Source: Chloroflexota bacterium | Lineage (GTDB): Bacteria > Chloroflexota > Anaerolineae > UBA4142 | Reading direction: 5' to 3' | Length of the DNA: 41,502 bases | Assembly: GCA_016200825.1 (NCBI GenBank) | Contig: JACQEA010000335.1 | Location: forward strand, 1-41,502 | Part shown: piece by piece, positions 245 through 32,589 of the stretch | Layout of the letters: each line of letters starts with the position of its first letter | How positions within the stretch are numbered: position 1 is the first letter of the stretch | Translations under genes and position numbers: made by a program | Notes under the pieces: model-generated | What the model was told of the DNA's origin: nothing | What the model saw: the letters and a program-made list of their open reading frames with translations, nothing else | Databases searched by the model: none

Positions 245-270
245 TCAAGTTGTGAATTTTGGAAAGTGAA

Positions 271-2368: not shown

Positions 2369-2428
2369 AATGATTTATCCGAAGAAAAAAATTCCAGAAA
2401 AAATTTCATCGGACACGATGAGGCAAGC

Positions 2429-8176: not shown

Positions 8177-10048
8177 ATGTGTGGGATTTGCGGAGTACTT
8201 GAGCTGAGCGGGCAATCCGTCTCCGCGCAAATGATCGCTAAGATGAATGAGACCATCCGGCATCGCGGTCCGGATGGTGATGGCGTTTGGGTTGAGGGTC
8301 CGATTGGACTAGGCAATCGTCGTTTGGCAATTATTGACCTGTCTCTGTCCGGTCATCAGCCAATGAGCAATGAGACCGGTGATGTGATCATTGTTTATAA
8401 TGGTGAGTTGTACAACTATCAAAGCTTGCGGATCGAACTGGAAGCGGCAGGGCATTGCTTTCATTCGCGCAGTGATACGGAAACGATTGTCCACGCGTAT
8501 GAAGAATGGGGCACGGCATGCTTGGAGCGATTCAATGGGATGTTTGCCTTTGCTATCTGGGACAAAAGCAATCAGCAACTATTCTTGGCGCGCGATCGTT
8601 TTGGCGTCAAACCCTTATATTATTACTGTGACAAGGAAAAGTTTGTCTTTGGATCCGAAATCAAAGCGATTCTGGCGTATCCCGGCATTCCGCGCAAGAT
8701 CTGCTTTCCGGCGCTCAATGAGTATTTTACCTTTCAGAATGGCCTGACCGATCTAACGCTTTTCGATGGCATTCGGCTATTGCCGCATGGGCATTCAATG
8801 ACGTTGAAACCGGCAGGCCACCTTGTGCAACGCCAGTACTGGGATTTTCCGATTGGGCGAGAGCGTTCCCCGCAATCCCCTGAAGAAGATACTGCCGAAG
8901 AACTGTATCATTTGTTTACGCAAGCCGTGACGCGGCAGTTGGTGAGCGATGTTCCGATTGCCAGTTACCTGAGCGGCGGAATGGATTCTGGTTCGATCAC
9001 TGCCGTCGCGCGACAGCACTTGGGACGCTTGATGACTTTTACCGGAGGCTTTGATCTTTCGTCCGCGTCTGGAATGGAATTGGGTTTTGACGAGCGCGCC
9101 AATTCGGAGATGCTCGCCAACCGATTCAAGACCGAACACTACGAGATGGTGCTCCATGCTGGCGATATGGAGAATATCATGCCAGAATTGATCTGGCATT
9201 TGGAAGACTTGCGCGTGGGTCAATGCTATCCCAACTATTACATTGCGCGATTGGCCGGCAAGTTTGTAAAAGTTGTTCTTTCCGGTACTGGCGGCGATGA
9301 ACTCTTTGGCGGTTATCCGTGGCGTTACTATCGCGGACTTAACAGTCACGGTGCAGGCGATTATTACCGGAACTATTACGAGTTCTGGCAACGTCTGGTG
9401 CCGGATGAAGACAAGCCTGCGCTATTCAACTCTGCAACCTACCAACAGATCAGCGGTCACTCGACTTTCGATGTCTTTCGAAATGTTTTTGGGCAAAGCA
9501 ATCCGGTGCTGAAAACCAGCGCGGATTTTGTTGATGCGTCGCTCTATTTTGAAGCCAAGACTTTTTTGCAGGGCTTGCTCGTCGTCGAAGACAAGATCAG
9601 CATGGCTCACTCTTTGGAAACGCGCGTGCCGTTTTTGGACAACGACTTGGTGGATTTTGCTAGCCGACTTCCACCGCAATATAAACTGCGCGATCTCGAC
9701 CGGATCGCGCAACCCGTGAACGAAAACGAGGCAGGCAAGCGGCTGCTGTATCGCACGCAAGATGGCAAACTGATTCTGCGCCGCGCGATGCAACGGCTTA
9801 TTCCGCCCGAAGTGACGGAGCGCGTCAAGCAGGGATTCAGCGCGCCGGATGCGAGTTGGTTTCGCGGTGAAAGTATTGATTACGTGAACGGGTTGTTGCG
9901 CAATCCGAGTGCGCGAATCTACGAATACCTCAATCCAGTTTATATTAGCCAACGCTTGGACGAACATACCTCCGGAACCCGCAACCAGCGGCTGTTCATA
10001 TGGTCGCTACTCAGTTTCGAGTGGTGGTTGCGCAAGTTCTTGATTTAG
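8177..10048 (+). CDS. asnB: Asparagine synthase family glutamine amidotransferase, copy 1 (glycan carboxylate amidation candidate)
   Basis: The N-terminal MCGICG carries the Ntn nucleophile Cys2, and the PP-loop reads YLSGGMDSGS. The product is 623 aa. Confidence 0.85.
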   Translation: MCGICGVLELSGQSVSAQMIAKMNETIRHRGPDGDGVWVEGPIGLGNRRLAIIDLSLSGHQPMSNETGDVIIVYNGELYNYQSLRIELEAAGHCFHSRSDTETIVHAYEEWGTACLERFNGMFAFAIWDKSNQQLFLARDRFGVKPLYYYCDKEKFVFGSEIKAILAYPGIPRKICFPALNEYFTFQNGLTDLTLFDGIRLLPHGHSMTLKPAGHLVQRQYWDFPIGRERSPQSPEEDTAEELYHLFTQAVTRQLVSDVPIASYLSGGMDSGSITAVARQHLGRLMTFTGGFDLSSASGMELGFDERANSEMLANRFKTEHYEMVLHAGDMENIMPELIWHLEDLRVGQCYPNYYIARLAGKFVKVVLSGTGGDELFGGYPWRYYRGLNSHGAGDYYRNYYEFWQRLVPDEDKPALFNSATYQQISGHSTFDVFRNVFGQSNPVLKTSADFVDASLYFEAKTFLQGLLVVEDKISMAHSLETRVPFLDNDLVDFASRLPPQYKLRDLDRIAQPVNENEAGKRLLYRTQDGKLILRRAMQRLIPPEVTERVKQGFSAPDASWFRGESIDYVNGLLRNPSARIYEYLNPVYISQRLDEHTSGTRNQRLFIWSLLSFEWWLRKFLI

Positions 10049-10051
10049 ATT

Positions 10052-10873
10052 TTGCTAGACACGAATATGCCTACTCTGCGTGCCGAAATTGAATTGTTGA
10101 ATGAAATTCTTGCATGTTCTATGTGCCACACCTCGCTTGCCGTCACCGATAAAGACGTGCGGGTGGTATGTGCACGTTGTCTCTCTAGTTTTCGCAAAGG
10201 CGCAGTAATTTGGAATTTCATGCCAACGCAAATTGATTTGACTGCGCCGCGTTGGCAGGCTTGGCAGGAATTGCAGAAAAACGGCATGACGAGTTATCAT
10301 GCCGATCCCGAACATAATTTGGCGATCGGTGAGCGCGTGGATTGCCAGCAGTTCGCTGAATTCTGCGATTATCGCGGTTTGGTCCTGGACGTAGGTTGTG
10401 GCCCGCAACCAGTGCCGGCATATTTTGATCTCAACTGTCCGGCAACATACGTTGGCATCGATCCCCTGATCAACGATGTGCCAACTCATTTTTTGAAACT
10501 GAAGGCGCTAGGCGAGTTCTTACCGTTTCGCGCTGACGTGTTCGATCAAATTATTTTCGCCACAACGCTGGATCATTTTGTGGATGCGATTGCCGCATTG
10601 AAAGAAGCCGCGCGCGTCTGTGGTCCCACCGGTGTAATCAACGTGTGGTTGGGAGAAAAACGCGCTGATGCATCAAAGCCGGCGCTCTCGCATGAATGGT
10701 ATCGGCGGCTGCATAAACCCACGTTAGCGGAGGATGTTTTTCACTTTAAACGGCTTGACGCGGTAGCATTTGCAGAGTTGGCGCGAATCGCCGGGTTAAA
10801 GATGATTAAGATCGAAGAGCATCACATTGATGACTTTCGCACGAACTGGTTTTACAGACTCAAGGCAGGTTAG
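10052..10873 (+). CDS. Class I SAM-dependent methyltransferase with N-terminal CxxC-x14-CxxC zinc-ribbon (Trm112-like) module
   Basis: CSMC...CARC is followed by motif I LVLDVGCGPQP. TTG 10052 or ATG 10067 are the possible starts. Confidence 0.7.
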   Translation: MLDTNMPTLRAEIELLNEILACSMCHTSLAVTDKDVRVVCARCLSSFRKGAVIWNFMPTQIDLTAPRWQAWQELQKNGMTSYHADPEHNLAIGERVDCQQFAEFCDYRGLVLDVGCGPQPVPAYFDLNCPATYVGIDPLINDVPTHFLKLKALGEFLPFRADVFDQIIFATTLDHFVDAIAALKEAARVCGPTGVINVWLGEKRADASKPALSHEWYRRLHKPTLAEDVFHFKRLDAVAFAELARIAGLKMIKIEEHHIDDFRTNWFYRLKAG

Positions 10874-10878
10874 AGGTA

Positions 10879-12479: not shown

Positions 12480-12553
12480 TCTGTTGTGTTCTTTTGTTGA
12501 AAGTTGAATTGATGCCTAGCAAAGACTCCCCTCGTGGATATTCTCGAAACAAA

Positions 12554-13775: not shown

Positions 13776-13789
13776 ACCAAGCGTGAGTA

Positions 13790-16226: not shown

Positions 16227-16229
16227 CTC

Positions 16230-17042: not shown

Positions 17043-17045
17043 AGT

Positions 17046-18437
17046 ATGATCATGAATTCTTTAGGATCTAAGAAACAGGTCGGGCGCATTCTCTTTATTG
17101 GAGTTTCGTACTATAACAATTGGTACTTGTCGCGTGAACTCAGGAAGCTCGGCTGGAAGGCGGATGTGCTGGCCTACAGCAGTGAAAACAGTGCTCTCTA
17201 TTCACATGGGAGCGATTTCTTCTTGAAGGAGTATACCCAAAACGACCCGCCCAAAAAGTGGTTTGCTCTTCTCCACTCATTCTTCGTCGGCGATTTGGAT
17301 TATCTCGAAAGTCTGTTGAATAAACGGTTGAAACGATTTGCCAGTTCGCTGGGACGGATCTCCTCTTGGTTTGTGCGGCATGCGCCGCGCCCCGTTCTTC
17401 TAAGGTTATTGATGCTTTTTCTCAATTCAATGCGTACGTCACGCCTTGCGGAACTTGAGCCGTTGTACGATGTACTTACCCAGTATGACATTGTGCATTT
17501 TACCGGTGTTCAGAACTTGCGGTACTTTTACTTTTTTTCTGTGCAGCACTTTGGGAGTATGCCGATTGGGTGGGATGTCGAACTTCTCAAACGTCTGGGA
17601 AAAAAGATTGTTTATAGCAATACGGGCTGTCTGGACGGCGTATCCCAAAGTTCTTTTCGCAAATGGGAAGGTCCCGAAGTTGTCTGCGACATCTGCCCAT
17701 GGCGAGATAACCCCGATGTTTGCAGTGACGAACACAACTTGACGTGGGGCAAACTGCGGAATGAGTTGTGCGATTATCAAATCACACTCGGCGGAAACCG
17801 CGGCGATTACAATGACGACCCGCGCGTCCATGAAGTTCCGGAATTCTATTGTTTGGATCCAGAAGTATGGCAACCCGATTTGTCAGTGCCAGCAGAATAC
17901 CGACTAGAGTTTCCTCAGGGAACCGTCAAGATTTTCCATGCGGTCGGTAATTTCAAACTTCGCACCGACGAGAACAATCGAAACTTGAAGAGCACACATA
18001 TTTACCTTCCTCTCATCGAACGGCTCAAACAGGAGGGTTACCCGGTCGAACTGCTCTTTTTCTCCAAGATGCCGAACAAAGAGCTTCGCTTTTATCAGGT
18101 GCAGGCTGATATTTTTGTGGATATGCTCACTGTGGGTTTTTTTGGCGCAACCGCGCGCGAAGGAATGATGCTGGGAAAGCCAGTCATTTGCTATTTACGG
18201 CCGCAATGGCTGGAGCAAATGCGGCGCGAAATCCCGGAATACGTGGACGAATTGCCGATCGTGAGCGCGACACCGCAGACGGTTGAGAAGGTGCTGAAAG
18301 ATCTGATCGAGCAACCGGAAAAACGCGCGGAAATCGGCAAACGAAGCCGCGCGTTTGCGCTCAAATGGCATTCGGCGGAGGCGGGAGCGAAACGGTTGGA
18401 ACAAATCTATTCTAGCTTGCTCAAAAAGCGTTGGTGA
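17046..18437 (+). CDS. Putative divergent GT-B glycosyltransferase with central Cys-rich insert
   Basis: The C-terminal FGATAREGMMLGKPVICY...AFALKWHS resembles the GT1/GT4 E-x7-E region. I cannot assign the N-terminal half. A cluster of 6 Cys is encoded at 17628..17852. Confidence 0.4.
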   Translation: MIMNSLGSKKQVGRILFIGVSYYNNWYLSRELRKLGWKADVLAYSSENSALYSHGSDFFLKEYTQNDPPKKWFALLHSFFVGDLDYLESLLNKRLKRFASSLGRISSWFVRHAPRPVLLRLLMLFLNSMRTSRLAELEPLYDVLTQYDIVHFTGVQNLRYFYFFSVQHFGSMPIGWDVELLKRLGKKIVYSNTGCLDGVSQSSFRKWEGPEVVCDICPWRDNPDVCSDEHNLTWGKLRNELCDYQITLGGNRGDYNDDPRVHEVPEFYCLDPEVWQPDLSVPAEYRLEFPQGTVKIFHAVGNFKLRTDENNRNLKSTHIYLPLIERLKQEGYPVELLFFSKMPNKELRFYQVQADIFVDMLTVGFFGATAREGMMLGKPVICYLRPQWLEQMRREIPEYVDELPIVSATPQTVEKVLKDLIEQPEKRAEIGKRSRAFALKWHSAEAGAKRLEQIYSSLLKKRW

Positions 18438-18441
18438 GAAT

Positions 18442-19902
18442 ATGCCTGAACCGTCCAAAGTATCTATTCAGGAACCTCCTCTGAACGTTCTTGTTTTGTA
18501 CGATCACATATCAACCTATACCACTACCGTCAAGGAATACTTGGAGAGTTTCTTGCTATACTCCAAGCACCGCATCTTTTATGCGGCGGCGACAAGTGGG
18601 AATCATGCGCCACCGACGACGGTGGATTTATCGCTGTTCGATGTGGTGATTATTCACTATTCAGTACGGTTGTGTTATGATTGGCACATCTTGCCTGTCT
18701 ACGCTAAAGCCGTGGCGCGTTTCGATGGGCTGAAAATGTTGTTTATTCAAGACGAGTACGACCACACGGATTTGGCGCGTCAGTGGATGAAGAAACTCGG
18801 GATCAATGTCGTGTTCACTTGTGTGCCGGAACAATTCATCGAGCAGGTGTACCCTTCCGCTTTGCTTCCAAAGGTTGACTTTATTCCGGTTTTGACCGGA
18901 TATGCGCCATTACCCAATGCAAAGTTCTCCTCTCACAAACCTTTTGCCGAACGAAAATATGTGATCGGTTATCGCGGCCGCCGTTTGCCTTTTCATTACG
19001 GGGACTTGGCTAGAGAAAAATCGTTTATTGGACAAGAAATGCGCCGAATCTGTGAAGCGCGTGGCATTTCGGTCAATATCGAATGGGAAGAAATTAAGCG
19101 TATTTATGGTGACAAATGGTACGCGTTCTTGCGCGACTGTCGGGCGACGCTAGGCACCGAAGGCGGATCGAATGTTTTTGATTTTAATGGGACGCTCAAG
19201 TCGGATGTGGATAATGCCTTGAAGAAAAAACCAGACTTGTCCTATGAGGAAATTCATCATCATTTTCTGGCAAAGCATGAAGGCAATGTTCGAATGAATC
19301 AAATCTCGCCTCGTATCTTTGAAGCCATTGCTTTGCGTACGGTACTCGTTCTTTTTGAGGGTGATTACTCGGGCGTCGTCAAACCTAATCTTCACTACAT
19401 TCTGTTGAAAAAAGATTTCAGCAACGTGGACCAGGTTTTAGAGAAACTCCTGGACGACTGTTATCTCGAGGAATTGACCGAGTGCGCCTATAGGGACATT
19501 ATCGAATCTGGGAACTATAGTTATCGCGGTTTTGTGCAAATGGTAGATGCACAAATTGATCGCCGTGTGAAAACTGCAAAGAACTCGGCGATCTTGACCG
19601 GGGTAGTTGCTTTCAGGCGGAATATAGAAGAGACGTGGCAACTTGTTGCGGTGCAACCTGAATCACCAGTCGTGTCTATGTTTACATCCCAACCAATCGG
19701 ACAATCCGAGTCACCGCCGCCGGGGACGGGGCGGTTGGGAGGACTGAGGTACAGGTACCAGATTGTGGTTATGAACTTGTTCAATTATGCTTCCAAACTA
19801 CGCGTTGAGCATCCGCGATTGTATGTGATTGTGCGGGCAATTTACCGCGGGATGCAAACGGTTTGGAAGATAATGAACCGACTCTTGATGAGATCAAAGT
19901 AA
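18442..19902 (+). CDS. CgeB-like / Glyco_trans_1_2-like putative glycosyltransferase, paralog 1
   Basis: The C-terminal ISPRIFEAIALRTVLVLFEGDYSGVVKPNLHYILLKKDFSNVD...AYRDIIESGNYSYRGF is collinear with paralogs 2 and 3. The ORF-track start 18355 was trimmed to ATG 18442, 4 nt after the upstream stop. Confidence 0.6.
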   Translation: MPEPSKVSIQEPPLNVLVLYDHISTYTTTVKEYLESFLLYSKHRIFYAAATSGNHAPPTTVDLSLFDVVIIHYSVRLCYDWHILPVYAKAVARFDGLKMLFIQDEYDHTDLARQWMKKLGINVVFTCVPEQFIEQVYPSALLPKVDFIPVLTGYAPLPNAKFSSHKPFAERKYVIGYRGRRLPFHYGDLAREKSFIGQEMRRICEARGISVNIEWEEIKRIYGDKWYAFLRDCRATLGTEGGSNVFDFNGTLKSDVDNALKKKPDLSYEEIHHHFLAKHEGNVRMNQISPRIFEAIALRTVLVLFEGDYSGVVKPNLHYILLKKDFSNVDQVLEKLLDDCYLEELTECAYRDIIESGNYSYRGFVQMVDAQIDRRVKTAKNSAILTGVVAFRRNIEETWQLVAVQPESPVVSMFTSQPIGQSESPPPGTGRLGGLRYRYQIVVMNLFNYASKLRVEHPRLYVIVRAIYRGMQTVWKIMNRLLMRSK

Positions 19903-19906
19903 ACGT

Positions 19907-20725
19907 ATGGATCAAGATAGGATTGATGTCAAGAATATCGAGTTCTGGAACGAATTGTGCGGTTCCGGCTTGACGCGCTCTCTGGGAATTACGGAAGCAT
20001 CCCCAGAGAATCTCCGTCGCTTTGACGATGCCTATTTCGCATTTTATCCTTATTTGACAGACTATGTTCTGCGATACAACCTTTCTGGTAAGAAGGTATT
20101 GGAGATTGGTTTGGGTTATGGCACGCTCGGGCAATTGATCGCTTCGCGCGGCGCTGATTATTACGGGCTTGACATTGCAGAGGGTCCAGTGAACATGATG
20201 CGTTATCGTCTGGAGCAGTTGGGGCGAAGTATCGAGGACAAGATGCGCGTGGGCTCGGCGCTGGACATTCCCCATGCAGACGCAAGTTTTGACTACGTAT
20301 ACACAATTGGTTGTTTACATCATACTGGCGATCTGCCAAAAGCCGTCTCCGAAGTTTACCGCGTGTTGGTGCCGGGTGGCAAAGCCATCGTCATGCTGTA
20401 CAATCGCAATTCATTTCGTCGCTTGATCCAAGCACCACTATTGCGGTTATTTTTTTGGGCAACACAACGCAAGACAAATTTCGATAAGTATGTCCGTTCA
20501 CTCTATGATTCCAATGCGGCTGGCGAAGCCGCGCCGCATACCGATTATGTATCGCGAAATCAGGTGAAAAGACTGTTTCAAGCATTTTCTCAAGTGAAGA
20601 TTGATGTCCAGAACTTTGACAATTATAGTCTCTTTCGAGGTCACATTTTCCTTTTGCGTCAGAAGTTTCTCAACAATGTGGCGCGGGTAATCGGACTGGA
20701 TCTGTACATTACAGCGGAAAAATAA
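19907..20725 (+). CDS. Class I SAM-dependent methyltransferase
   Basis: Motif I is KVLEIGLGYGTLG. The post-I region reads YGLDI and a later segment reads LHHTGDL...RVLVPGGKAIV. Confidence 0.75.
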   Translation: MDQDRIDVKNIEFWNELCGSGLTRSLGITEASPENLRRFDDAYFAFYPYLTDYVLRYNLSGKKVLEIGLGYGTLGQLIASRGADYYGLDIAEGPVNMMRYRLEQLGRSIEDKMRVGSALDIPHADASFDYVYTIGCLHHTGDLPKAVSEVYRVLVPGGKAIVMLYNRNSFRRLIQAPLLRLFFWATQRKTNFDKYVRSLYDSNAAGEAAPHTDYVSRNQVKRLFQAFSQVKIDVQNFDNYSLFRGHIFLLRQKFLNNVARVIGLDLYITAEK

Positions 20726-20743
20726 TCTCTCAGGTGTAATCCA

Positions 20744-22069
20744 GTGAAAGTTAACGGCATTCTTCTATTATATCATCACCCGTTGGGCCATAATGCACCA
20801 ACGATCATGGAGCACGTGAATGCATTCGAGCGTCATTCCCGGTTTCAGATATGGAATGTCAATACTGAATTAGGATTTCCGAAAGAATTAAAGCAACTTG
20901 AATTCGAGGGGGTCGTCCTGCATTACTCGCTGTTCGGCACCGCGAACTACATGCTGAACGCCGAGTTTCTGGATTACCTTTCGTGTTTGCGCGCGTACAA
21001 AGTTGCCTTTTTTCAGGACGAATATCATCATTGTCGGCAGCGCTTTGATTTTCTAAATCGCTACCAGATTGATTGCGTTTTTACGCTCGTCGAATCGGTC
21101 TATTGGAAGGATGTGTATCAAAAATACACCCGCGTGCCCAATTTAGTTTATCAACTCACTGGGTATGTCAGTAACGCCTTAGTCGAACATGCCGCGCGAT
21201 TGACGATGCCGGACGCGCAGAGAAAAATCGACATTGGCTATCGCGGCAGGAATTTATTGGGCTATTATTATATGGGCAAGGGAGTCCGTGAGAAGGTAGA
21301 GATTGCCGCTGTGTTTCGCGAACGCGCGCAAGAGCTTGGCTTGAAATTGGATATTGAGCATGAGGAACGCAAACGAATTTATGGATGGCGATGGTACCAG
21401 TTTTTGGCAAACTGCCGCGCCGTACTGGGTGTTGAAGCCGGCGTATCAATCTTTGATGTGCAAGATGTAGTCCAGACGGAATGCACTCGCTTGCTTGCGG
21501 AGAATCCGTCGCTCAATTTCGAGGAAATCTCGCAGAAATTTTTGTACCAGTGGGAAGGCAATATTCCGCATCGAGTTATCAGCCCGCGGCATTTTGAGGC
21601 GGCGGCGTTGCGCGTATGCCAGATTCTATTCGAAGGCAATTACTCCGGCATCCTCAAGCCGATGGTGCATTACATTCCTCTGAAAAAGGATTGGTCGAAC
21701 TTTGATGAGGTGATCCGGATGTTCAGGGATACCGCGCTCCGGCAGGAATTGACGGAGAACGCGTATCGTGATTTGATCGCGTCAGGTCAATATAGTTATC
21801 AGAAATTTATCGCGGGATTTGATCAAGTATTGCTCGATGCGGGTTTACAACTGGGTGTTCCCGAAGCAAATGCCCTACGCGTTACCGCGCGCTTGAGTCA
21901 AGGACAGACCCGCCGCCAAGCCTTTGCGCTGGTGCGCGGCGTGCCCCATTACCCGTTTCCGGGACGCCGGTTCGTCACTCCTACGATTAAACGCGTGCAG
22001 AGTTTGTATCGCCGATGGAAACAACTCGCGGCGACCAACCAAGTGTCTCAAGGGGAAAAAATCAGCTAA
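20744..22069 (+). CDS. CgeB-like / Glyco_trans_1_2-like putative glycosyltransferase, paralog 2
   Basis: ISPRHFEAAALRVCQILFEGNYSGILKPMVHYIPLKKDWSNFD...AYRDLIASGQYSYQKF is present, along with the shared FFQDEYHH motif. The start is GTG 20744. Confidence 0.6.
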   Translation: MKVNGILLLYHHPLGHNAPTIMEHVNAFERHSRFQIWNVNTELGFPKELKQLEFEGVVLHYSLFGTANYMLNAEFLDYLSCLRAYKVAFFQDEYHHCRQRFDFLNRYQIDCVFTLVESVYWKDVYQKYTRVPNLVYQLTGYVSNALVEHAARLTMPDAQRKIDIGYRGRNLLGYYYMGKGVREKVEIAAVFRERAQELGLKLDIEHEERKRIYGWRWYQFLANCRAVLGVEAGVSIFDVQDVVQTECTRLLAENPSLNFEEISQKFLYQWEGNIPHRVISPRHFEAAALRVCQILFEGNYSGILKPMVHYIPLKKDWSNFDEVIRMFRDTALRQELTENAYRDLIASGQYSYQKFIAGFDQVLLDAGLQLGVPEANALRVTARLSQGQTRRQAFALVRGVPHYPFPGRRFVTPTIKRVQSLYRRWKQLAATNQVSQGEKIS

Positions 22070-22070
22070 T

Positions 22071-23978
22071 ATGTGCGGAATCGCCGGCGCGCTTGATTTA
22101 AAATTACAACCCATTGCCAATCTGTCCCTTCGCCTCGACGCGATGAATTCGTTACAAGCGCATCGCGGTCCCGATGGCGAAGGGACGTGGCAGCATCCGC
22201 GCGGCCATCTCGGATTCGCGCATCGCCGGCTGAGCACTATCGATCTCGCTACCGGCGATCAGCCTATGACGGATCGCGCCGGCAATTGGGTGATCTTGAA
22301 CGGCGAAATTTATAATTACCTTGAATTGCGCCAAGAATTGGGACTCGAAAATTTTGTCACCACTTCGGATACGGAAGCAATCTTATTCGCCTATCGCAAA
22401 TGGGGCGGCGAGTGTGTCAATCATTTGCGCGGGATGTTCGCGTTTGTGTTGTGGGACGAAGCGAATCAAACCTTGTTTTGCGCGCGCGATCGCTTTGGCA
22501 TCAAGCCCTTGTATTACGCCGTTGTCAATAACCAATTTTATTTTGCGTCGGAAGCGAAATCCCTCTTGCCATTTGTGGAACACATCGAGACTGACCTGAA
22601 CGGATTCAAAGACTATTTGGCGTTTCAATTTCCGCTTGGAGGCAAGACGCTCTTCAAAGGCATTTCCGAATTATTGCCGGCGCACTATATGCGCGTGCGC
22701 AACGGCGTCGTCGAGATCAAGCGGTATTGGGAAGTTTATTATCATCTCGATTTCGATCATCCCCCCGAATATTTTGAAGAGCGTCTGCGCGCGCTCTTAG
22801 CCGATTCGGTGACGTTTCATCTGCGCGCGGATGTGCCGGTGGGCGCATACATTAGCGGCGGATTAGATTCGAGCATCGTCGCCGCGTTGGCGCGAAAAGA
22901 AAATCGCGGCGAGTTTATCGGATTTACCGGCAAATTTTCAGCTAGCTCGGATTACGATGAAAGTCCGTACGCGCGCGCGGTTGCCGACGCGTACGATTTC
23001 CGACTTGAAGAAATTGATATTCAGCCGCAAGATTTCATCGCGCATATTCGGCAAGTTATTTATCATCTCGATTACCCGGTCGCGGGTCCCGGTTCTTTTC
23101 CACAATACATGGTTTCACGGCTCGCCGCAAAATCGCGCAAGGTGGTGTTGGGTGGACAAGGCGGCGACGAGATTTTTGGCGGGTATACGCGTTACCTGAT
23201 CGCGTACTTTGAGCAATGCATCAAAGCCGCGATTGATGGGACGATGGAGAACGGCAATTTTGTTGTCACGTACGAATCGATCATTCCCAACTTGACCGCG
23301 TTGCAAAATTACAAACCCCTGCTCCAAGAATTTTGGCGCGAGGGATTATTCGAGCCGATGGACGCGCGCTATTTTCGCTTGATCAATCGCGCCCCAAGTC
23401 TGAATGACGAGATTCGTTGGGACTTGCTAAATAAATATTCCCCGTTTGAAACGTTCAAAGAAATTTTCAACGGGCAGAATGTGCGCAAAGAATCCTATTT
23501 TGATTTGATGACGCACTTTGATTTCAAAACGCTTTTGCCGGCGTTGTTGCAAGTAGAAGATCGCGTCAGCATGGCGCACGGGTTGGAATCGCGCGTGCCT
23601 TTTCTCGATCATCCTTTAGTTGAATTTGCCGCGACGATTCCATCGAACATCAAATTCAAAGACGGTACGATGAAGCAGGTTTTGAAAAATGCAATGCATT
23701 CTCTTTTGCCTCCCGCGATCGCGGAACGCAAAGATAAAATGGGCTTTCCGACTCCATTGACGGAATGGATTCAAGGACCCGCGAAAGATTTTGTGCATGA
23801 AATTTTTTCCGCGGCGTGCGCCCAAGACCGCGCGTTGATTGACAATCGCCGCGTGCTCGACACGCTGGGCAAAGAAAAAAAGTTTGGGCGAAATGTGTGG
23901 GGACTGTTATCGTTAGAATTGTGGCAACAAGAATTTCACGATCAAGAATCCAAATTCAAACGCATGCTTAAAGCCTAA
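22071..23978 (+). CDS. asnB: Asparagine synthase family glutamine amidotransferase, copy 2
   Basis: MCGIAGAL begins at ATG 22071, 1 nt after the upstream stop. The ORF-track start 21924 would bury the essential N-terminal Cys. The PP-loop reads YISGGLDSSI. Confidence 0.85.
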   Translation: MCGIAGALDLKLQPIANLSLRLDAMNSLQAHRGPDGEGTWQHPRGHLGFAHRRLSTIDLATGDQPMTDRAGNWVILNGEIYNYLELRQELGLENFVTTSDTEAILFAYRKWGGECVNHLRGMFAFVLWDEANQTLFCARDRFGIKPLYYAVVNNQFYFASEAKSLLPFVEHIETDLNGFKDYLAFQFPLGGKTLFKGISELLPAHYMRVRNGVVEIKRYWEVYYHLDFDHPPEYFEERLRALLADSVTFHLRADVPVGAYISGGLDSSIVAALARKENRGEFIGFTGKFSASSDYDESPYARAVADAYDFRLEEIDIQPQDFIAHIRQVIYHLDYPVAGPGSFPQYMVSRLAAKSRKVVLGGQGGDEIFGGYTRYLIAYFEQCIKAAIDGTMENGNFVVTYESIIPNLTALQNYKPLLQEFWREGLFEPMDARYFRLINRAPSLNDEIRWDLLNKYSPFETFKEIFNGQNVRKESYFDLMTHFDFKTLLPALLQVEDRVSMAHGLESRVPFLDHPLVEFAATIPSNIKFKDGTMKQVLKNAMHSLLPPAIAERKDKMGFPTPLTEWIQGPAKDFVHEIFSAACAQDRALIDNRRVLDTLGKEKKFGRNVWGLLSLELWQQEFHDQESKFKRMLKA

Positions 23979-23991
23979 CGAGGTGTTGTAA

Positions 23992-24933
23992 ATGCAGATA
24001 TTGATCACCGGCGGAAGTGGTTTCATTGGCTCGCATCTGGCAGACTATTTGGTCGCGCGCGGCGACCATGTGTTGGTGATTGACAATTACGCGACCGGAC
24101 GGCGCGATAATCTTTCGACCCAATCCAATCTCAAAATGGTTGAAGGTTCGATTGCAGACCCCGAACTTGTCCAACGCGTTTTTTCCGAATTCAAACCGGA
24201 GATTGTCGTTCATGCCGCGGCGTCGTACAAAGACCCCAGCAATTGGAGCGAAGACGCGCGCACGAATGTTTTGGGAACCGCGAATATCGTTCAAGCGTCC
24301 GAGCAAGTTGGCGTCCGGCGGTTGATTTATTTTCAAACCGCGTTGTGCTATGGACTCGTCCCGCTCGAACAACCGATTACCCTCATTCATCCGCTTCGAC
24401 CCGAAGGTAGTAGTTACGCGATTAGCAAAACCGCCGGCGAGCATTATATCGCGCTCGGCAAATTGGATTTTATTTCCTTCCGTCTCGCAAACGCTTACGG
24501 ACCGCGCAATTTGAGCGGACCCTTGCCTACATTTTATTCGCGCTTGACCACCGGCAAGAAATGTTTTGTGATGAACACGCGGCGCGATTTTATTTTTGTA
24601 GACGATTTGATTCAAGTGGTGATAAAAGCAATCGCGGGCAAGGGTACGCGCGGCTATTACCACATTTCTTCCGGCGGCGACTATTCGATCAAAGAACTTT
24701 TCGACGCGACCGTCAAGGCGCTGGGAATTAAATTGGAAAGCGAAGTAGAAGTGCGCGAACGCAATCCAGACGACGCATTCACAATTCTATTGGACCCCTC
24801 CAAAACAAATCATGACTTTGGTTGGGAAGCAAACACGCACCTCAGCGAAGGCGTGGCGCGCGCGATTGATTACTATCGCCAGTTCGGAATTCAAGAAACC
24901 TTCACCCACCTGCGCACGCCGTTGGATAAATAA
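23992..24933 (+). CDS. NAD-dependent epimerase/dehydratase (SDR)
   Basis: MQILITGGSGFIGSHLADYL is the Rossmann motif and YAISK is the YxxxK motif. ATG 23992 is preceded by GAGGTG. Confidence 0.85.
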   Translation: MQILITGGSGFIGSHLADYLVARGDHVLVIDNYATGRRDNLSTQSNLKMVEGSIADPELVQRVFSEFKPEIVVHAAASYKDPSNWSEDARTNVLGTANIVQASEQVGVRRLIYFQTALCYGLVPLEQPITLIHPLRPEGSSYAISKTAGEHYIALGKLDFISFRLANAYGPRNLSGPLPTFYSRLTTGKKCFVMNTRRDFIFVDDLIQVVIKAIAGKGTRGYYHISSGGDYSIKELFDATVKALGIKLESEVEVRERNPDDAFTILLDPSKTNHDFGWEANTHLSEGVARAIDYYRQFGIQETFTHLRTPLDK

Positions 24934-26006
24934 TGCAGGAATTTGCAAATACAAACGTGCTCGTTACTGGCGGCGCGGGCTTTGTCGGCAGTAATCTAGT
25001 CCACCGATTGCTAACCGCAAATACGCACACCATTCATATCGTTGACAATTTGCTTTCAGCCGAACGCGTCAACATTCCGTCCGATCCGCGCATCCGTTTC
25101 ACAGAGGGCTCCATTGCCGATGATCGCGTCCTGGAAAAACTTTACGACGAGTACGATTTTATTTTTCACCTTAGCACCTATCATGGCAATCAAAGTTCGA
25201 TTCATAACCCGCTCGCGGATCACGATAACAATTTGCTGACCACGCTCAAACTGCTTGAACGCGTCAAACATTTCCAGCGTTTGAAAAAATGGGTTTATGC
25301 CGGCGCCGGATGCGCGGTGGCGGAAAAAACTTTTGATCAAGCGTATGCCACCTCCGAAGACGCGCCTGTATCGTTGCACATGGACAGCCCCTACTCGATC
25401 TCAAAAATCGTCGGCGAATATTACGCGGTCTATTATCACGCGCGCTACAATGTGCCAACCGTGCGCGCGCGTTTTCAAAACGTCTATGGTCCCGGCGAGA
25501 TTTTGGGCGCGGGGCAATGGCGCGGCACACCCGCCACAGTTTGGCGGAATGTTATTCCAACGTTCATCTACAAATCCCTAAGGCGTGCAGCGTTGCCGGT
25601 TGAAGGCGGAGGCGAGGCAACTCGCGATTTTATTTTCGTTCAAGATATTGTCTCGGGCTTGATCTTGTGCGCGCTCCAAGGCACCGCAGGGGATGTTTAT
25701 AATCTGGCGAGTGGTGTGGAAACGAGCATCCTGAATTTAGCGCAGTTGATCAACGAAATGACCGGCAATTCAACGCCATTGAAAATTTTACCGGCGCGCG
25801 GGTGGGATCATTCCGGCAAGCGCTATGGTAGTCCGGTGAAATCCAAACGTGAGATTGGCTTTGAAGCAAAAACAAATTTGCGCGCAGGATTGCTGAAGAC
25901 GATCGAATGGACGCGTGAGCATATGGAGATGATCGAAACCTGCATTCAAAGGCACTCGCTGCTGATGAGAGAAAATGAAAGAGCGCATCAAAACACTTTT
26001 GCTTGA
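24933..26006 (+). CDS. NAD-dependent epimerase/dehydratase (SDR; 4,6-dehydratase/decarboxylase-like)
   Basis: VLVTGGAGFVGSNLVHRLL is the Rossmann motif and YSISK is the YxxxK motif. Its start forms a TAATG 1-nt overlap with the previous gene. Confidence 0.85.
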   Translation: MQEFANTNVLVTGGAGFVGSNLVHRLLTANTHTIHIVDNLLSAERVNIPSDPRIRFTEGSIADDRVLEKLYDEYDFIFHLSTYHGNQSSIHNPLADHDNNLLTTLKLLERVKHFQRLKKWVYAGAGCAVAEKTFDQAYATSEDAPVSLHMDSPYSISKIVGEYYAVYYHARYNVPTVRARFQNVYGPGEILGAGQWRGTPATVWRNVIPTFIYKSLRRAALPVEGGGEATRDFIFVQDIVSGLILCALQGTAGDVYNLASGVETSILNLAQLINEMTGNSTPLKILPARGWDHSGKRYGSPVKSKREIGFEAKTNLRAGLLKTIEWTREHMEMIETCIQRHSLLMRENERAHQNTFA

Positions 26007-27153
26007 TGCGAATGGCGCCAAACCGCACGCTATTTTTGTCAATACAGTTTTACGCGGTGTGCTCGGAGTTCGAAATTATCTTGACGCATCTTCGCCCTTG
26101 AATCGATTACCATTCGCGGGGCGAGTATTGGGAAAATGGTATGACAGCGCTTCATATATGCTTGATTGGCGCGAGGCGTTTGATCAATCTCCCGCGCTCG
26201 AGGTTGAAAACTGCAACATTAGCAATTTGTTTGAATATGCACGATTCCGCCGCGCTGTCGCTGAATATCCCCTGATTATTATTTTACACTCGGCGGCGGG
26301 TGACGATCTTTCGCTATTGCTTAGAACCGTCAAGTGGTTTCAGCGCCGACGCGGAAAACTAGTTGTCTTTTTGGGCAACGAGTATGATCTGATGTCGGAG
26401 AAAAGCGCCTTCTTGAAAGCCGTGAGTGCCGACTTTGTTTGCACTCAACTGCCAATCGAATCGGCCCGCTGGTTATATGGTGAACTGACCGATACGCGTA
26501 TTCTAGAAATGCCGCATGCGCTCAATCCACGCGTGTATTTTCCTACTTCTTCGAGAACCCGTTCGATTGATATCGGCTTTGTTGGCGACCTTTATCCTCA
26601 CTTTATCGGAGACGTTGAACGTACTAACTTGATTTATTATTTTCAAACTCACGCACCCAATTGGAATTTGTCTATAGACATTCGCTTTCAACGGATGTCG
26701 CGTTTAAAGTGGGCTGAATTTCTAAGACACTCCGCCGGAACAATTGGAGGAGAGTCCGGCACCTATTATTTGGATCGGCGCGGGGAGATTGTTAATCGAG
26801 CCAAAGCATTCACAAAAAAAAATCCGCACGCAACATTTGAACAACTCTGGGCGAATTGTTTTCACGATTTGCCTCCGTTCGTTTCCGGTCGCGCTGTTTC
26901 GTCTCGCCACTTTGAGCCGATTGGAACTAAAACTTGCCAGATTCTGCTCGAAGGGAATTACAACCATATCCTTCAACCCGAAGAGCATTATATCGCGGTA
27001 AAAAAAGATCTCTCCAATATTGACGAAGCCGTGCGCCGGTTCAAAGACAAAACTTATCGCGATGCGATTGTGGAGCGGACCTATGAATATGCAATGGATC
27101 AACATACATATGCGCATCGCGTCAATGCGCTAATCAACGCGGTGGTGGGTTAA
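25975..27153 (+). CDS. CgeB-like / Glyco_trans_1_2-like putative glycosyltransferase, paralog 3
   Basis: VSSRHFEPIGTKTCQILLEGNYNHILQPEEHYIAVKKDLSNID...TYEYAMDQHTYAHR is present. It is collinear with paralogs 1 and 2 (FLGNEYDL in place of FxQDEY). It overlaps the upstream SDR gene by 32 nt. Confidence 0.55.
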   Translation: MKERIKTLLLDANGAKPHAIFVNTVLRGVLGVRNYLDASSPLNRLPFAGRVLGKWYDSASYMLDWREAFDQSPALEVENCNISNLFEYARFRRAVAEYPLIIILHSAAGDDLSLLLRTVKWFQRRRGKLVVFLGNEYDLMSEKSAFLKAVSADFVCTQLPIESARWLYGELTDTRILEMPHALNPRVYFPTSSRTRSIDIGFVGDLYPHFIGDVERTNLIYYFQTHAPNWNLSIDIRFQRMSRLKWAEFLRHSAGTIGGESGTYYLDRRGEIVNRAKAFTKKNPHATFEQLWANCFHDLPPFVSGRAVSSRHFEPIGTKTCQILLEGNYNHILQPEEHYIAVKKDLSNIDEAVRRFKDKTYRDAIVERTYEYAMDQHTYAHRVNALINAVVG

Positions 27154-27224
27154 TCCCCCGGCTCTCTCATGCTAAACAAAGATAAATTTTGAGCAATTTT
27201 ATTCTGCATTGATTGGAAATTGAG

Positions 27225-29189
27225 ATGTGCGGCATCACAGGTTTCTGGCAATCATCGGGCGAAGAGCAAGCATTACTATGCGCGCGCGTGACGCGCATGG
27301 CGGATTGCATCGCGCATCGCGGTCCCGATGATTCGGGTGTGTGGGTGGATGCTGCCGCCGGTTTGGCGTTGGGTTTTCGGCGGCTCGCCATTCTCGATCT
27401 CACTCCGACCGGACATCAACCGATGCTTTCCGCCGACGGACGTTGCGCGATTATTTTTAACGGCGAAATTTATAATGAACGCGAATTGCGCGCGGAGGCG
27501 GAAGCGCGCGGCGTCCGTTTTCGCGGCCGTTCCGACACCGAAGTGATTGTGGAAAACGCGGCGCGCGGCGGCGCGGAAAAAATTATTCCGCAATTGTGGG
27601 GAATGTTCGCGCTCGCAATTTGGGATCGCGAAAAAAGAGAATTGACGCTCGCGCGCGATCGTCTTGGCAAAAAGCCGCTCTATTACGCGCAATTCGGCGG
27701 AACATTTTTGTTTGGGTCTGAACTCAAAGCGTTGCGTCAGCATCCAGATTTCAAAGCCGAAATCAATCGCGCGGCTCTGGTTTTGTATTTGCGACATGGA
27801 TATGTGCCGGCGCCTCTTTCAATTTATTCCGGAGTTTACAAATTGCCGGCGGGGCATCTTCTCACCGTCCGCGCCGATCATTCGTATCACACGCGTCCGT
27901 ATTGGGACGCCGCGCAAGTAATTGAAAAGAGTGCAAACAACCGGCTGCAACTCGATGATGCGGGCGCGATCGAACAACTGGATTCGCTTCTGCGCGATTC
28001 GGTTGCGCGGCGAATGGTTGCCGATGTTCCATTGGGCGCATTTTTATCCGGCGGTATTGATTCTTCGACTGTTGTCGCGTTGATGCAGGCACAAAGCAAT
28101 CGTCCGGTAAAATCGTTCAGTATTGGTTTTCATATTCCTTCTTACAACGAAGCCACATTTGCCAAGCAGGTGGCTTTGCATCTCGGCACTGATCACACTG
28201 AGTTGTACGTCACCGCTGAAGAAGCGCAAGCCGTTATTCCGCGATTGCCTGATTTGTATGACGAACCGTTTTCGGATTCCTCGCAGATTCCAACCTTCTT
28301 GATCTCACAACTCGCGCGAAAACATGTAACGGTCGCGCTTTCCGGGGATGGCGGAGATGAATTGTTTGCCGGATATAATCGTTACAATCTCGCGATGGAT
28401 GTTTGGAATCGGATGAGATTTATTCCTTCCGCGCTTCGCCGATTGGCGGGTCGCGGAATCCGGTATCTCAATCCTGAACAATGGAACGCGATTTATCATC
28501 GCATGGAATGGATTATCCCATCAAAACTAAGGATGAATCTTGCGGGCGAAAAAATTTTCAAATTCGCTAACTTTGCCGACATTACCGACCCAGAGTTGCT
28601 TTATCTGAATCTCATTTCAATATGGAAGACTGAAGATGCCAAGAACTTGGTCTGCGACGCGTCTGAAAAATTCCGCGAGCCATTCAAATTTCCGCGCGGC
28701 TTGCTGGGCTTTCTCGAGCAAATGATGTTTTTGGATCTAGTTACTTATTTGCCGGACGATATTCTCGCGAAAGTAGATCGCGCCAGTATGGGCGTTAGTC
28801 TCGAAGTGCGCGCGCCTTTTCTCGATCATCGCGTCGTGGAATGGGTGTGGAGACTGCCGAATCGGTTTAAGCAAAGAGATGGACAATCGAAATGGTTATT
28901 GCGGCAAGTGTTGTCCAAATATGTTCCAACGGAATTAAGCGAGCGACCCAAAATGGGATTTGGAGTTCCGATTGATGTTTGGCTCCGAGGTCCGCTAAAA
29001 GACTGGGCAGAAAATTTATTGAGTGAAGAAAAACTGAGAGACGCCGGTCTCTTCCGTCCAGAGCCAATCCGTAAAGTGTGGGCAAGTCATTTGAAAGGCA
29101 ATACCAACGAGCAATACAAATTGTGGGCAATCTTGATGTTCCAAGCGTGGAACGAGCGCTGGATGAAAGCTGAAAAAATAGTACGATGA
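27225..29189 (+). CDS. asnB: Asparagine synthase family glutamine amidotransferase, copy 3
   Basis: MCGITGFW begins at ATG 27225 (the ORF-track TTG 27213 was trimmed so that Cys is residue 2). The PP-loop reads FLSGGIDSST. Confidence 0.85.
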   Translation: MCGITGFWQSSGEEQALLCARVTRMADCIAHRGPDDSGVWVDAAAGLALGFRRLAILDLTPTGHQPMLSADGRCAIIFNGEIYNERELRAEAEARGVRFRGRSDTEVIVENAARGGAEKIIPQLWGMFALAIWDREKRELTLARDRLGKKPLYYAQFGGTFLFGSELKALRQHPDFKAEINRAALVLYLRHGYVPAPLSIYSGVYKLPAGHLLTVRADHSYHTRPYWDAAQVIEKSANNRLQLDDAGAIEQLDSLLRDSVARRMVADVPLGAFLSGGIDSSTVVALMQAQSNRPVKSFSIGFHIPSYNEATFAKQVALHLGTDHTELYVTAEEAQAVIPRLPDLYDEPFSDSSQIPTFLISQLARKHVTVALSGDGGDELFAGYNRYNLAMDVWNRMRFIPSALRRLAGRGIRYLNPEQWNAIYHRMEWIIPSKLRMNLAGEKIFKFANFADITDPELLYLNLISIWKTEDAKNLVCDASEKFREPFKFPRGLLGFLEQMMFLDLVTYLPDDILAKVDRASMGVSLEVRAPFLDHRVVEWVWRLPNRFKQRDGQSKWLLRQVLSKYVPTELSERPKMGFGVPIDVWLRGPLKDWAENLLSEEKLRDAGLFRPEPIRKVWASHLKGNTNEQYKLWAILMFQAWNERWMKAEKIVR

Positions 29190-30028
29190 ATGAAATGCCT
29201 AACGTAGATGTTCAAACCATCCGCGGATTCGGCGACGAATGGACGCGCTATGATCAGTCGGAGCTTTCTGATGCGGAACGCGCGGACATTTTTCAGCAGT
29301 ACTTTTCTATTTTTCCATGGGAATTCTTGCCGGAGAATGCAACAGGTTTCGATCTCGGTTGTGGGAGTGGTCGCTGGGCAAAAAGTGTCGCGCCGCGCGT
29401 GGGTAAACTGCATTGCATTGATCCCAGCGAAAAAGCAATGCGCGTGGCGCAACGCAATTTGCGCGCAGTTCCAAATTGCGAATTTCATCTCGCCAGCGTA
29501 GATCAAATTCCTCTCTCAGACCATTCAATGGATTTCGGTTATGCGCTCGGCGTGCTTCATCACGTGCCCGATACTCGCGCGGGCATCCGCGCATGCGCGA
29601 TGAAACTCAAACCCGGCGCACCGCTGTTGCTTTATCTCTACTATGCGTTCGACAGTCGCCCACTTTGGTTTCGTGCGATCTGGAAGCTGTCCGATTTATT
29701 CCGCCGCATAATTTCACAACTCCCGTTTTTTCTAAAGTCCAGCATTAGTTGGTTAATTGCGGCGACAATTTATTTTCCGCTTGCGCGCGTGGCACGCGGA
29801 TTGGAAAAGATCGGCTGGAATGTTGAGCCCATTCCACTCTCGCAATATCGTCGGCGCAGTTTTTACATCATGCGCACTGATGCGCTAGATCGGTTTGGGA
29901 CTAGACTTGAAAAACGATTTACGCAAAAAGAAATCCGGGAGATGATGGAGCAAAGTGGCTTGGAGCGCATCACATTCTCACCGCATGTTCCGTATTGGTG
30001 CGCATTAGGGTACAAAAAGCAAACTTGA
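29186..30028 (+). CDS. Class I SAM-dependent methyltransferase
   Basis: Motif I is GFDLGCGSGRW, followed by CIDPS and LHHVPD...LKPGAPLLL. Its start forms an ATGA overlap with asnB copy 3. A hydrophobic segment lies near the C-terminus (ISWLIAATIYFPLA). Confidence 0.75.
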   Translation: MNEMPNVDVQTIRGFGDEWTRYDQSELSDAERADIFQQYFSIFPWEFLPENATGFDLGCGSGRWAKSVAPRVGKLHCIDPSEKAMRVAQRNLRAVPNCEFHLASVDQIPLSDHSMDFGYALGVLHHVPDTRAGIRACAMKLKPGAPLLLYLYYAFDSRPLWFRAIWKLSDLFRRIISQLPFFLKSSISWLIAATIYFPLARVARGLEKIGWNVEPIPLSQYRRRSFYIMRTDALDRFGTRLEKRFTQKEIREMMEQSGLERITFSPHVPYWCALGYKKQT

Positions 30029-31338: not shown

Positions 31339-31348
31339 TTGACTTGTC

Positions 31349-31960: not shown

Positions 31961-31964
31961 TTCG

Positions 31965-32588: not shown

Positions 32589-32589
32589 A

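Follow-up and report, generated by a model that had tools for sequence, protein, structure and literature searches.

A predicted Bordetella wbm-type gene cluster for an amidated diacetamido-uronic acid polymer in a Chloroflexota bacterium

Introduction

The DNA analysed here, referred to as the window, comprises positions 1 to 41,502 of contig JACQEA010000335.1 (assembly GCA_016200825.1) of a Chloroflexota bacterium. Exact sequence matches are confined to the metagenome assemblies SRR12113411 and SRR12113413. It contains a glycan operon of 32 genes on the + strand (259-35576). Three families are each represented three times: the AsnB-type glutamine-dependent amidotransferases (AsnB1-3), the proteins of a family designated X (X1-3) and the class I S-adenosylmethionine (SAM) methyltransferases (MT1-3). 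A first-pass annotation had named these nine genes, all of which fall inside the operon, and regarded them as a threefold module with CgeB-like X proteins. The window is interpreted here, with good confidence, as a wbm-type cluster similar to the Bordetella O-antigen loci, for a polymer of 2,3-diacetamido-2,3-dideoxy-hexuronic acids that is built on a lipid-linked primer, bears primary amides at C-6 and is exported by an ATP-binding cassette (ABC) transporter. The apparently new threefold module becomes in this way a recognisable Bordetella wbm route to amidated diacetamido-uronic acid polymers.

The nine genes and the two short-chain dehydrogenase/reductase (SDR) genes located among them are:

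8177..10048, + strand: AsnB1, glutamine-dependent amidotransferase, orthologue group 1 (PF00733 302 bits; MCGI and SGGMDS motifs)
10052..10873, + strand: MT1, class I SAM methyltransferase with a Cys-rich N-terminal extension (Methyltransf_23 37 bits, Methyltransf_11 34.6 bits)
18442..19902, + strand: X1, X family (no Pfam match; nearest is the WbmK C-terminal domain)
19907..20725, + strand: MT2, class I methyltransferase (Methyltransf_11 69.3 bits)
20744..22069, + strand: X2, predicted GT-B-fold transferase (AlphaFold2 (AF2) model and Foldseek)
22071..23978, + strand: AsnB2, orthologue of Bordetella WbmI (57% identity over 630 aa)
23992..24933, + strand: SDRa, WbmH/WbmG-type extended SDR (PDB 2Q1W and 2PZK matches)
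24933..26006, + strand: SDRb, WbmF-type putative 3,5-epimerase (PDB 2PZJ match)
25975..27153, + strand: X3, predicted GT-B-fold transferase of the PF13524 branch (PF13524 29.9 bits; AF2 model)
27225..29189, + strand: AsnB3, amidotransferase, orthologue group 3 (TIGR03108 608 bits, under the 816.9 cut-off)
29186..30028, + strand: MT3, class I methyltransferase (Methyltransf_11 64.9 bits)

The gene order and the spacers (-4 to 71 nt) agree with the earlier description: 3 nt separate AsnB1 and MT1; 4, 18 and 1 nt follow one another along X1, MT2, X2 and AsnB2; 71 and -4 nt along X3, AsnB3 and MT3. X2 starts with a GTG codon.

The core cassette and the Bordetella wbm locus

The link to Bordetella was made because the SDR pair placed 3' of AsnB2 matched the structures 2PZJ, 2Q1W and 2PZK, which are WbmF, WbmH and WbmG of the B. 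bronchiseptica O-antigen (wbm) locus (PMC2279256). Between SDRb and WbmF (2PZJ, E 1e-155) the identity amounts to 66%, with the segments HLSTYHGNQS, AGAGCAVAEK, DSPYSISK, FQNVYGP and VWRNV present in the alignment. SDRb carries the whole WbmF fingerprint, namely Cys133 in Ala-Gly-Cys without the triad Ser/Thr, His90-Gly-Asn, Tyr161-x3-Lys, Asn190 and Asn213 (PMC2279256, PMC12820599). SDRa is of the WbmG/WbmH type by both identity and the YxxxK motif: it shares 53% identity with WbmH (2Q1W, E 7e-107) and 43% with WbmG (2PZK, E 1e-84), and has YAISK at residue 142 (143 in WbmH).

The WbmF sequence was rebuilt from the 2PZJ alignment, traced to the Bordetella protein and to its genomic neighbourhood (locus L082), and the neighbourhood was searched with the window proteins over 21 kb (10-kb flanks). 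The names wbmI-wbmL in this locus derive from the gene order and the published lengths of WbmF, WbmG and WbmH, those of wbmJ, wbmK and wbmL being positional. AsnB2 aligns with WbmI at 57% identity over 630 aa (807 bits). X1 is 49% identical over 366 aa (E 1e-118) to residues 374-739 of WbmK, the 866-aa protein beside Wzm, and X2 is 33% identical to residues 8-373 of WbmJ, an 878-aa protein whose C-terminal half is a GT4 domain. Altogether, the matches of X1, X2 and X3 fall on WbmK residues 374-739 and WbmJ residues 8-384. The Wzm permeases of the window and of Bordetella share 36% identity. The B. bronchiseptica order Wzm-WbmK-WbmJ-WbmI-WbmH-WbmG-WbmF is collinear with the window order Wzm-g18-X1-MT2-X2-AsnB2-SDRa-SDRb.

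WbmK residues 1-389 (786-1952 of L082) have no Pfam match and no similarity to any window protein. A fission of WbmK into g18 and X1 was considered and rejected, as g18 is dissimilar to the N-terminal 389 aa of WbmK and to the X profile, to which hhalign finds it unrelated.

The wbm polymer is a homopolymer of 2,3-diacetamido-2,3-dideoxy-L-galacturonic acid, partly as the uronamide (L-GalNAc3NAcA/AN), with a capped non-reducing end and export by an ABC transporter (PMC2615507). Its locus encodes three glutamine amidotransferases (wbmC, wbmI and wbmZ), pointed out in 2009, and a periplasmic deamidase, WbmE (PMC2615507). No homologue of WbmE or of WbmD was found among the window proteins, a result that fits a fully amidated product. 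An N-acetylated, C-6-amidated and methylated uronic acid polymer is very probable, with a core orthologous to Bordetella wbm (PMC2615507, PMC12041961); the first-pass annotation had proposed such chemistry, for a polymer with neutralised charge. Its suggestion that the pairing is new is not supported: WbmK and WbmJ, which contain X domains, lie directly upstream of WbmI in B. bronchiseptica, and three amidotransferases in one cluster were reported in 2009 (PMC2615507).

Several points weigh against the wbm-type assignment. The identity of the sugar is deduced from orthology, and the activities of Bordetella WbmF/G/H/I/J/K are themselves predictions. The window has one WbmH/G-type SDR, whereas Bordetella has two. 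Curated glycosyltransferase (GT) models fail to recognise X1 and X2, and the Foldseek TM-scores are just 0.45-0.58. The cap may come from any one of MT1-3, and the methyl acceptor may be O, N or a carboxylate. The co-occurrence figures given below carry an ascertainment bias. Finally, no ligase or oligosaccharyltransferase that would point to the acceptor of the polymer was recognised in the window.

The three amidotransferases

All three AsnB genes are full length. Their products match PF00733 with 302-390 bits, cover profile positions 2-354 and also match GATase_7 (147-170 bits) and GATase_6. The N-termini of AsnB1, AsnB2 and AsnB3 read MCGICG, MCGIAG and MCGITG, with the nucleophile Cys right after Met, and the PP-loops are YLSGGMDSGS, YISGGLDSSI and FLSGGIDSST (SGGMDS at residue 266, SGGLDS at 262 and SGGIDS at 275). 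Coordinates, starts and loops are exactly those quoted earlier.

All three proteins exceed the cut-off of the broad TIGR01536 model (464-519 versus 267 bits), as would be expected of ordinary asparagine synthetases, or of peptidoglycan or other amidotransferases merely sited in the operon. That they are such enzymes is nevertheless highly improbable. Their scores for NF006949, the E. coli-type AsnB model with a cut-off of 499, are 297, 293 and 285 bits. In a neighbour-joining distance tree without support values, with E. coli AsnB, WbmI and WbmC as references, the longest branch sets off E. coli AsnB, and WbmI falls inside the AsnB2 group. AsnB2 is orthologous to WbmI, the genes are spaced by 0-70 nt within a glycan operon, and the clades keep glycan-gene neighbours in many phyla. 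The comparison with housekeeping enzymes that had been proposed as a check thus places none of the three with the E. coli type.

The window proteins are related to the WbpS/WbqG-type exopolysaccharide amidotransferases and are not members of that group by the NCBI threshold. None passes TIGR03108 (eps_aminotran_1, cut-off 816.9), for which AsnB3 scores 608, AsnB1 465 and AsnB2 444 bits; AsnB3 is therefore the copy nearest to this model. Pairwise, AsnB1-3 are 30-34% identical over their full length (E 1e-76 to 1e-107). In the tree they fall apart into three orthologue groups, whose conserved neighbours differ from group to group; AsnB2 belongs to the WbmI group, AsnB1 and AsnB3 do not. Owing to this low identity and to the age of the three groups, the copies are not recent duplicates.

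Related loci and recurrent cassettes

Related loci were collected by a scan of one genome per species, in which gene labels denote the best match to window proteins only. X relatives are encoded in 75 distinct loci of many phyla and of Methanoregula. Three recurrent cassettes, and not one repeated unit, are found in these loci. Cassette A is AsnB1-MT1-SDR-unknown-GNAT-WbqC, often with a g18-type GT, and g18 itself travels with it. The set recurs in L003, L008, L041, L044, L047, L055 and L078, and its product may be a cap or side residue that is N-acylated and amidated. Cassette B is X(-X)-MT2-AsnB2-SDRa-SDRb-X3. Cassette C is AsnB3-(MT3)-GT4.

The 50 X-seeded loci of at least 18 kb contain AsnB in 41 cases, a methyltransferase in 39, a WbmF-type SDR in 34, Wbp-type genes in 30, ABC-exporter genes in 22 and two or more AsnB in 15, all these counts being conditional on the seeding with X. 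The adjacency of the families, which was to be checked in other genomes, is conserved in many of them. AsnB2-type genes have SDRa or SDRb directly downstream in 30 of 34 cases and X upstream in only 15 of 34, and AsnB2 is for this reason tied first to the nucleotide-sugar enzymes. X3 follows SDRb in L005, L014, L015, L017, L022, L023, L025, L047 and L063. Members of the AsnB1 group adjoin MT1, the unknown gene, GNAT and WbqC in L008, L044, L047 and L059. The AsnB3 clade has GT4 downstream and often MT3, the order AsnB3-MT3-GT4 being also that of L069.

The cassettes bear directly on the earlier proposal of three iterations of an AsnB, X and methyltransferase module, in which every copy would add, amidate and methylate a single residue. 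Three copies per family in one tightly spaced operon speak for it. The B. hinzii O-antigen repeat has three amidated residues, so several amidations per repeat do occur (PMC12041961). The X3-AsnB3 adjacency recurs in L017 and also in L005 and L047, where the AsnB is labelled AsnB1 by best match. On the other hand, the partners of AsnB1 are MT1, SDR, the unknown gene, GNAT and WbqC, with no adjacent X; MT1 has no BLASTP similarity to MT2 or MT3; the AsnB proteins, at 30-34% identity, belong to three old orthologue groups with different neighbours; and the dominant partner of AsnB2 is the SDR pair. The 21 kb examined in B. hinzii (locus L086, so assigned by the name on its WbmF cluster) show two AsnB and one methyltransferase for the three amidated residues. 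A threefold module is consequently unlikely. Cassettes A and C are conserved independently of each other, and the three amidotransferases would therefore serve three different substrates within a wbm-type pathway.

The distribution of the cassettes is wide. X-(MT)-WbmI-WbmH-WbmF occurs, among others, in Acidobacteriota, Chloroflexota, Actinomycetota, Planctomycetota, Nitrospirota, Thermodesulfobacteriota, Campylobacterota and Methanoregula. Two Methanoregula metagenome-assembled genomes (L020 and L027) hold the MT2-X-AsnB2-SDRa-SDRb core with ABC-exporter genes, which implies inter-domain transfer of the cassette. The wbm core, studied mainly in a few Bordetella species, extends to numerous bacterial phyla and to some methanogens, a far wider range than the Bordetella literature consulted would suggest. 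Sulfurospirillum arcachonense DSM 9755, a cultured non-pathogenic bacterium in which the chemistry could be tested, has a nearly syntenic locus (L047).

In the Bipolaricaulota (L003/L004), the gene at the AsnB2 position (12117-13610) is called as 497 aa only, with no glutaminase-domain match on record. Its product may be an amidotransferase that is truncated at the N-terminus, dependent on ammonia or defective. In the same locus, the two X genes are separated by a transposase.

The X family

The X proteins had been described as three CgeB-like paralogues. Their mutual homology is confirmed: BLASTP gives 37% identity between X1 and X2 (E 5e-70), 29% between X2 and X3 (E 4e-30) and 25% between X1 and X3 (E 6e-25), and hhalign aligns the X2-family and X3-family profiles over 373 columns (probability 100%, E 7e-69). 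Membership in PF13524 stands for X3 only (29.9 bits, threshold 25 bits). For X1 and X2 there is no NCBIfam match and, at E <= 0.01, no Pfam match; for X1 the Pfam result stays negative even at E <= 1.

The family is large, with 3,888 clusters at 50% identity in an exhaustive profile search. X2 has more than 1,280 database homologues. The best 120 (55-66% identity) span Bipolaricaulota, Acidobacteriota, Deltaproteobacteria and an Asgard archaeon, and none of these 120 bears a functional name or a Pfam domain. Relatives of X3 are likewise widespread, and most carry PF13524. A tblastn search with X2 of 72,556 plasmids gave no match. Among the best 150 X-family proteins, 22 have two X domains, two have three and three are fused to an MT2-like methyltransferase; no AsnB-X fusion is among these 150 representatives. 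The representatives P0376, P0382, P0477 and P0362-P0364 are X-MT or MT-X fusions or contain two to three tandem X domains, in proteins of up to 2,344 aa. As 'Rosetta stone' evidence, the fusions and the tandem copies support a coupling of X with the methyltransferase and a polymerase role.

AF2 models were obtained for X2 (pLDDT 91.4) and X3 (pLDDT 88.5), and Foldseek matches both with probability 1.0 to dozens of solved GT-B enzymes, which include PimB', BshA, MshA, SdgB, TarM, T4 alpha-glucosyltransferase (AGT) and POGLUT1. X2 and X3 can thus be assigned confidently to the GT-B glycosyltransferases by predicted fold. The transferase nature that had been put up for checking is supported for X3 by PF13524 and for X2 and X3 by the structure models, and X1 and X2 reach no curated transferase model.

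X might alternatively be a family of non-catalytic scaffolds or polymer-modifying enzymes that retained a GT-B-like fold. This would account for the missing Pfam and NCBIfam matches of X1 and X2, for the low identity to solved GT-B enzymes (about 10-13%, TM-scores near 0.5) and for an N-terminal half unlike GT4. It is a rather remote alternative, opposed by the Foldseek probability of 1.0 for both models, by the PF13524 matches of X3 and its relatives, by an RHFE...G motif block strongly conserved in the C-terminal Rossmann half and by the tandem X-X-X architecture, typical of ABC-pathway polymerases. The operon would then also be short of transferases: besides X1-3 it offers one clear GT4 and the weak g18 only, and for this reason the X proteins are the best candidates for chain-building transferases.

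No characterised member of the family, WbmJ and WbmK included, was found in the sources searched. The X domain is the common part of these two large, previously unassigned proteins. Among candidates for the enzyme that polymerises or caps the Bordetella O-antigen, a virulence factor and vaccine target, it also ranks first. A wider proposal is tentative and falls a little short of an even chance: X would be a founding GT-B family for the polymerisation of 2,3-diacetamido-hexuronic acids or uronamides, X-(MT)-WbmI-WbmH-WbmF would mark a widespread and hitherto unrecognised class of uncharged 'polyuronamide' glycans at the cell surface, and each AsnB group would amidate a different residue.

Methyltransferases and export

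MT1, MT2 and MT3 all pass Pfam class I methyltransferase models (cut-off 21.2 for Methyltransf_11), in agreement with the earlier assignment. The relationship between MT2 and MT3 is weak (27% over 123 aa), and MT1 has no BLASTP match to either. MT1 recurs beside AsnB1-type genes, and MT2-like genes adjoin X in many loci. The B. hinzii methyltransferase located between Wzm and the WbmJ-like gene has MT2 as its best window match. MT2 is the probable capping enzyme because it is fused to X in some organisms and stands at the WbmK position in B. hinzii. According to the literature, ovine B. parapertussis has a 'methyltransferase type 11' gene at the wbmK position, which is set beside MT2 by name only.

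The features of an ABC-transporter-dependent pathway are present: a Wzm permease, ABC_tran and Wzt_C. No flippase or polymerase family was matched by the open reading frames scanned with Pfam. The two tandem Wzt-like ATPases (13790-14998 and 14985-16226) share 32% identity across some 384 aa, a stretch that takes in the C-terminal extension; of the pair, the second alone passes Wzt_C. The B. hinzii and Achromobacter loci likewise have two ATPases ahead of Wzm. This arrangement suggests a heterodimeric exporter or the recognition of two cap types.

Proposed pathway

In the following scheme the catalytic activities, the point at which amidation takes place and what each methyltransferase does are predictions, made from homology, orthology, collinearity, fold and co-occurrence. 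The genes at 717-5804 would, from their content, provide UDP-ManNAc3NAcA. SDRa and SDRb, orthologues of the Bordetella enzymes, would then convert it into UDP-L-GalNAc3NAcA by oxidation, 3,5-epimerisation and reduction, the putative chemistry that King et al. put forward for WbmF/G/H (PMC2279256). AsnB2 would amidate the C-6 carboxylate with glutamine and ATP. This most likely happens at the nucleotide-sugar stage, because AsnB2 has a near-invariant place directly upstream of the SDR pair; the published view likewise places amidation late among the nucleotide-sugar steps.

The small phosphoglycosyl transferase, the PglD/E/F-like enzymes and the GT4 would assemble the primer. Subsequently, X1-3, which correspond to stand-alone GT-B domains of WbmK and WbmJ (fold from X2 and X3), would build the chain or add the cap. 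MT2 would methylate the chain, probably at its end as a 4-O-methyl cap, which would halt elongation and be recognised by the C-terminal domain of Wzt, and Wzm/Wzt would export the chain. AsnB1, MT1, GNAT, WbqC and g18 on the one side, and AsnB3, MT3 and GT4 on the other, most likely supply and attach extra amidated residues (a second repeat sugar, a linker or a cap).

Other genes of the operon

The remaining genes of the operon are:

259..759, + strand: MarR-type/HTH_24 regulator at the operon head (Pfam HTH_24, 58 bits)
717-1814, + strand: WecB-type 2-epimerase (Pfam; NCBIfam wecB equivalog 324 bits, above the cut-off)
1811-2368, + strand: hexapeptide N-acetyltransferase (Pfam)
2429-3496, + strand: DegT aminotransferase (Pfam)
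3490-4488, + strand: GFO-type 3-dehydrogenase (Pfam; NCBIfam UDP-GlcNAc 3-dehydrogenase 354 bits, under the 450 cut-off)
4485-5804, + strand: nucleotide-sugar 6-dehydrogenase (Pfam; NCBIfam NDP-sugar dehydrogenase 406 bits)
5805-6761, + strand: extended SDR (Pfam)
6758-7930, + strand: second DegT aminotransferase (Pfam)
10879-11718, + strand: SDR/reductase of cassette A (Pfam)
11715-12479, + strand: conserved 254-aa protein of cassette A (no Pfam or NCBIfam model matched)
12494-13078, + strand: GNAT of cassette A (Pfam)
13068-13775, + strand: WbqC-like protein of cassette A (Pfam)
13790-14998, + strand: ABC ATPase (ABC_tran)
14985-16226, + strand: Wzt with C-terminal carbohydrate-binding domain (ABC_tran; Wzt_C 36 bits, cut-off 30.4)
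16230-17042, + strand: Wzm permease (ABC2_membrane 49 bits)
17046..18437, + strand: g18, weak GT1-like protein (PF00534 25.7 bits, just under the cut-off)
30127-31338, + strand: GT4 (Pfam)
31349-31960, + strand: small phosphoglycosyl transferase (Pfam; match to the B. hinzii Bac_transf gene, 128 bits)
31914-32588, + strand: PglD-like acetyltransferase (Pfam)
32590-33738, + strand: PglE-like aminotransferase (Pfam)
33735-35576, + strand: PglF/WlbL-like dehydratase (Pfam; 39% identity to Bordetella WlbL)

The diacetamido-uronic acid gene set reported earlier is present. The five genes of 717..5804, recognised by Pfam and NCBIfam, would form a Wbp/Wlb-type set for UDP-ManNAc3NAcA, as judged from gene content and context. 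The extended SDR and the second DegT aminotransferase are a candidate 4-oxidation/4-amination pair for a further amino sugar or a cap residue. The initiation block of the operon is 30127..35576. L005 and L015 have homologues of the HTH_24 regulator beside their related cassettes.

The largest intergenic gap of the operon (7931-8176, 246 nt) lies directly 5' of AsnB1 and may hold an internal promoter between the precursor genes and cassette A. Rfam found no RNA family in the window, with no specific scan of this gap. Two divergent genes for DUF2079 membrane-protein paralogues (35607-38012, - strand; 38023-40317, + strand) follow the operon. Their products, of about 800 aa, are 36% identical, and the first has a weak Wzt_C-like match (residues 552-638, E 0.008). 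Speculatively, the pair could be the missing enzyme that passes the exported glycan to its acceptor.

Comparison with known systems

The wbm locus (wbmA-wbmZ) of B. bronchiseptica and B. parapertussis resembles the window further in its PglF/WlbL-like dehydratase, its additional AsnB copies, ABC export and a capped chain. The X domains are three separate proteins of about 400-490 aa in the window, whereas in Bordetella they are parts of the 866- and 878-aa WbmK and WbmJ. The window has three methyltransferases, in contrast to none within 21 kb of B. bronchiseptica wbm. Unlike that locus, the operon itself includes the Wbp-type precursor genes and a diNAcBac-type primer block.

Methyl-capping chain terminators are found in ABC-transporter-dependent O-polysaccharide pathways, such as WbdD of E. 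coli O8/O9a and WsaE of Geobacillus. In these systems, as is proposed for the window, a methyltransferase is coupled physically or genetically to the polymerising GT, and Wzt has a C-terminal binding domain. As a difference, no kinase or coiled-coil ruler domain was seen in the window.

The AsnB superfamily and the predicted type of reaction are shared with WbpS of P. aeruginosa O6, WbqG of E. coli O121, PGN_1234 of P. gingivalis and WbpS of H. pullorum, for which genetic evidence points to the conversion of a carboxylate into a primary amide on N-acetylated hexuronic acids. The window proteins, compared by model score alone, fall below the cut-off of TIGR03108, the model that holds WbpS and WbqG. 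P. gingivalis needs a WbpS-type AsnB to form the uronamide of a diacetamido sugar (PMC7468200), and several AsnB genes occur in one polysaccharide cluster in Rubrivivax psc1 (PMC3684757).

The content of the B. hinzii locus is closer to the window than that of B. bronchiseptica. Its order ABC-ABC-Wzm-MT-WbmJ-like-WbmI-WbmH-WbmG-WbmF is collinear with that of the window, an MT2-like gene stands in place of wbmK and, as in the window, there is no deamidase gene within 21 kb. In this region a single X domain, fused to GT4, is accompanied by one methyltransferase and two AsnB genes, whereas the window has three of each and, in addition, the AsnB1/WbqC/GNAT cassette. The B. hinzii O-antigen repeat consists of two beta-GlcNAc3NAcAN and one alpha-GalNAc3NAcAN, fully amidated and N-acetylated, with a 4-O-methyl-GalNAc3NAcAN cap (PMC12041961).

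The pairing and the three amidotransferases are already known from Bordetella wbm, and the predicted product matches a solved glycan structure. Of remaining interest is X itself, a large GT-B family that had no functional annotation in the sources searched and whose X1/X2 branch lies outside Pfam.

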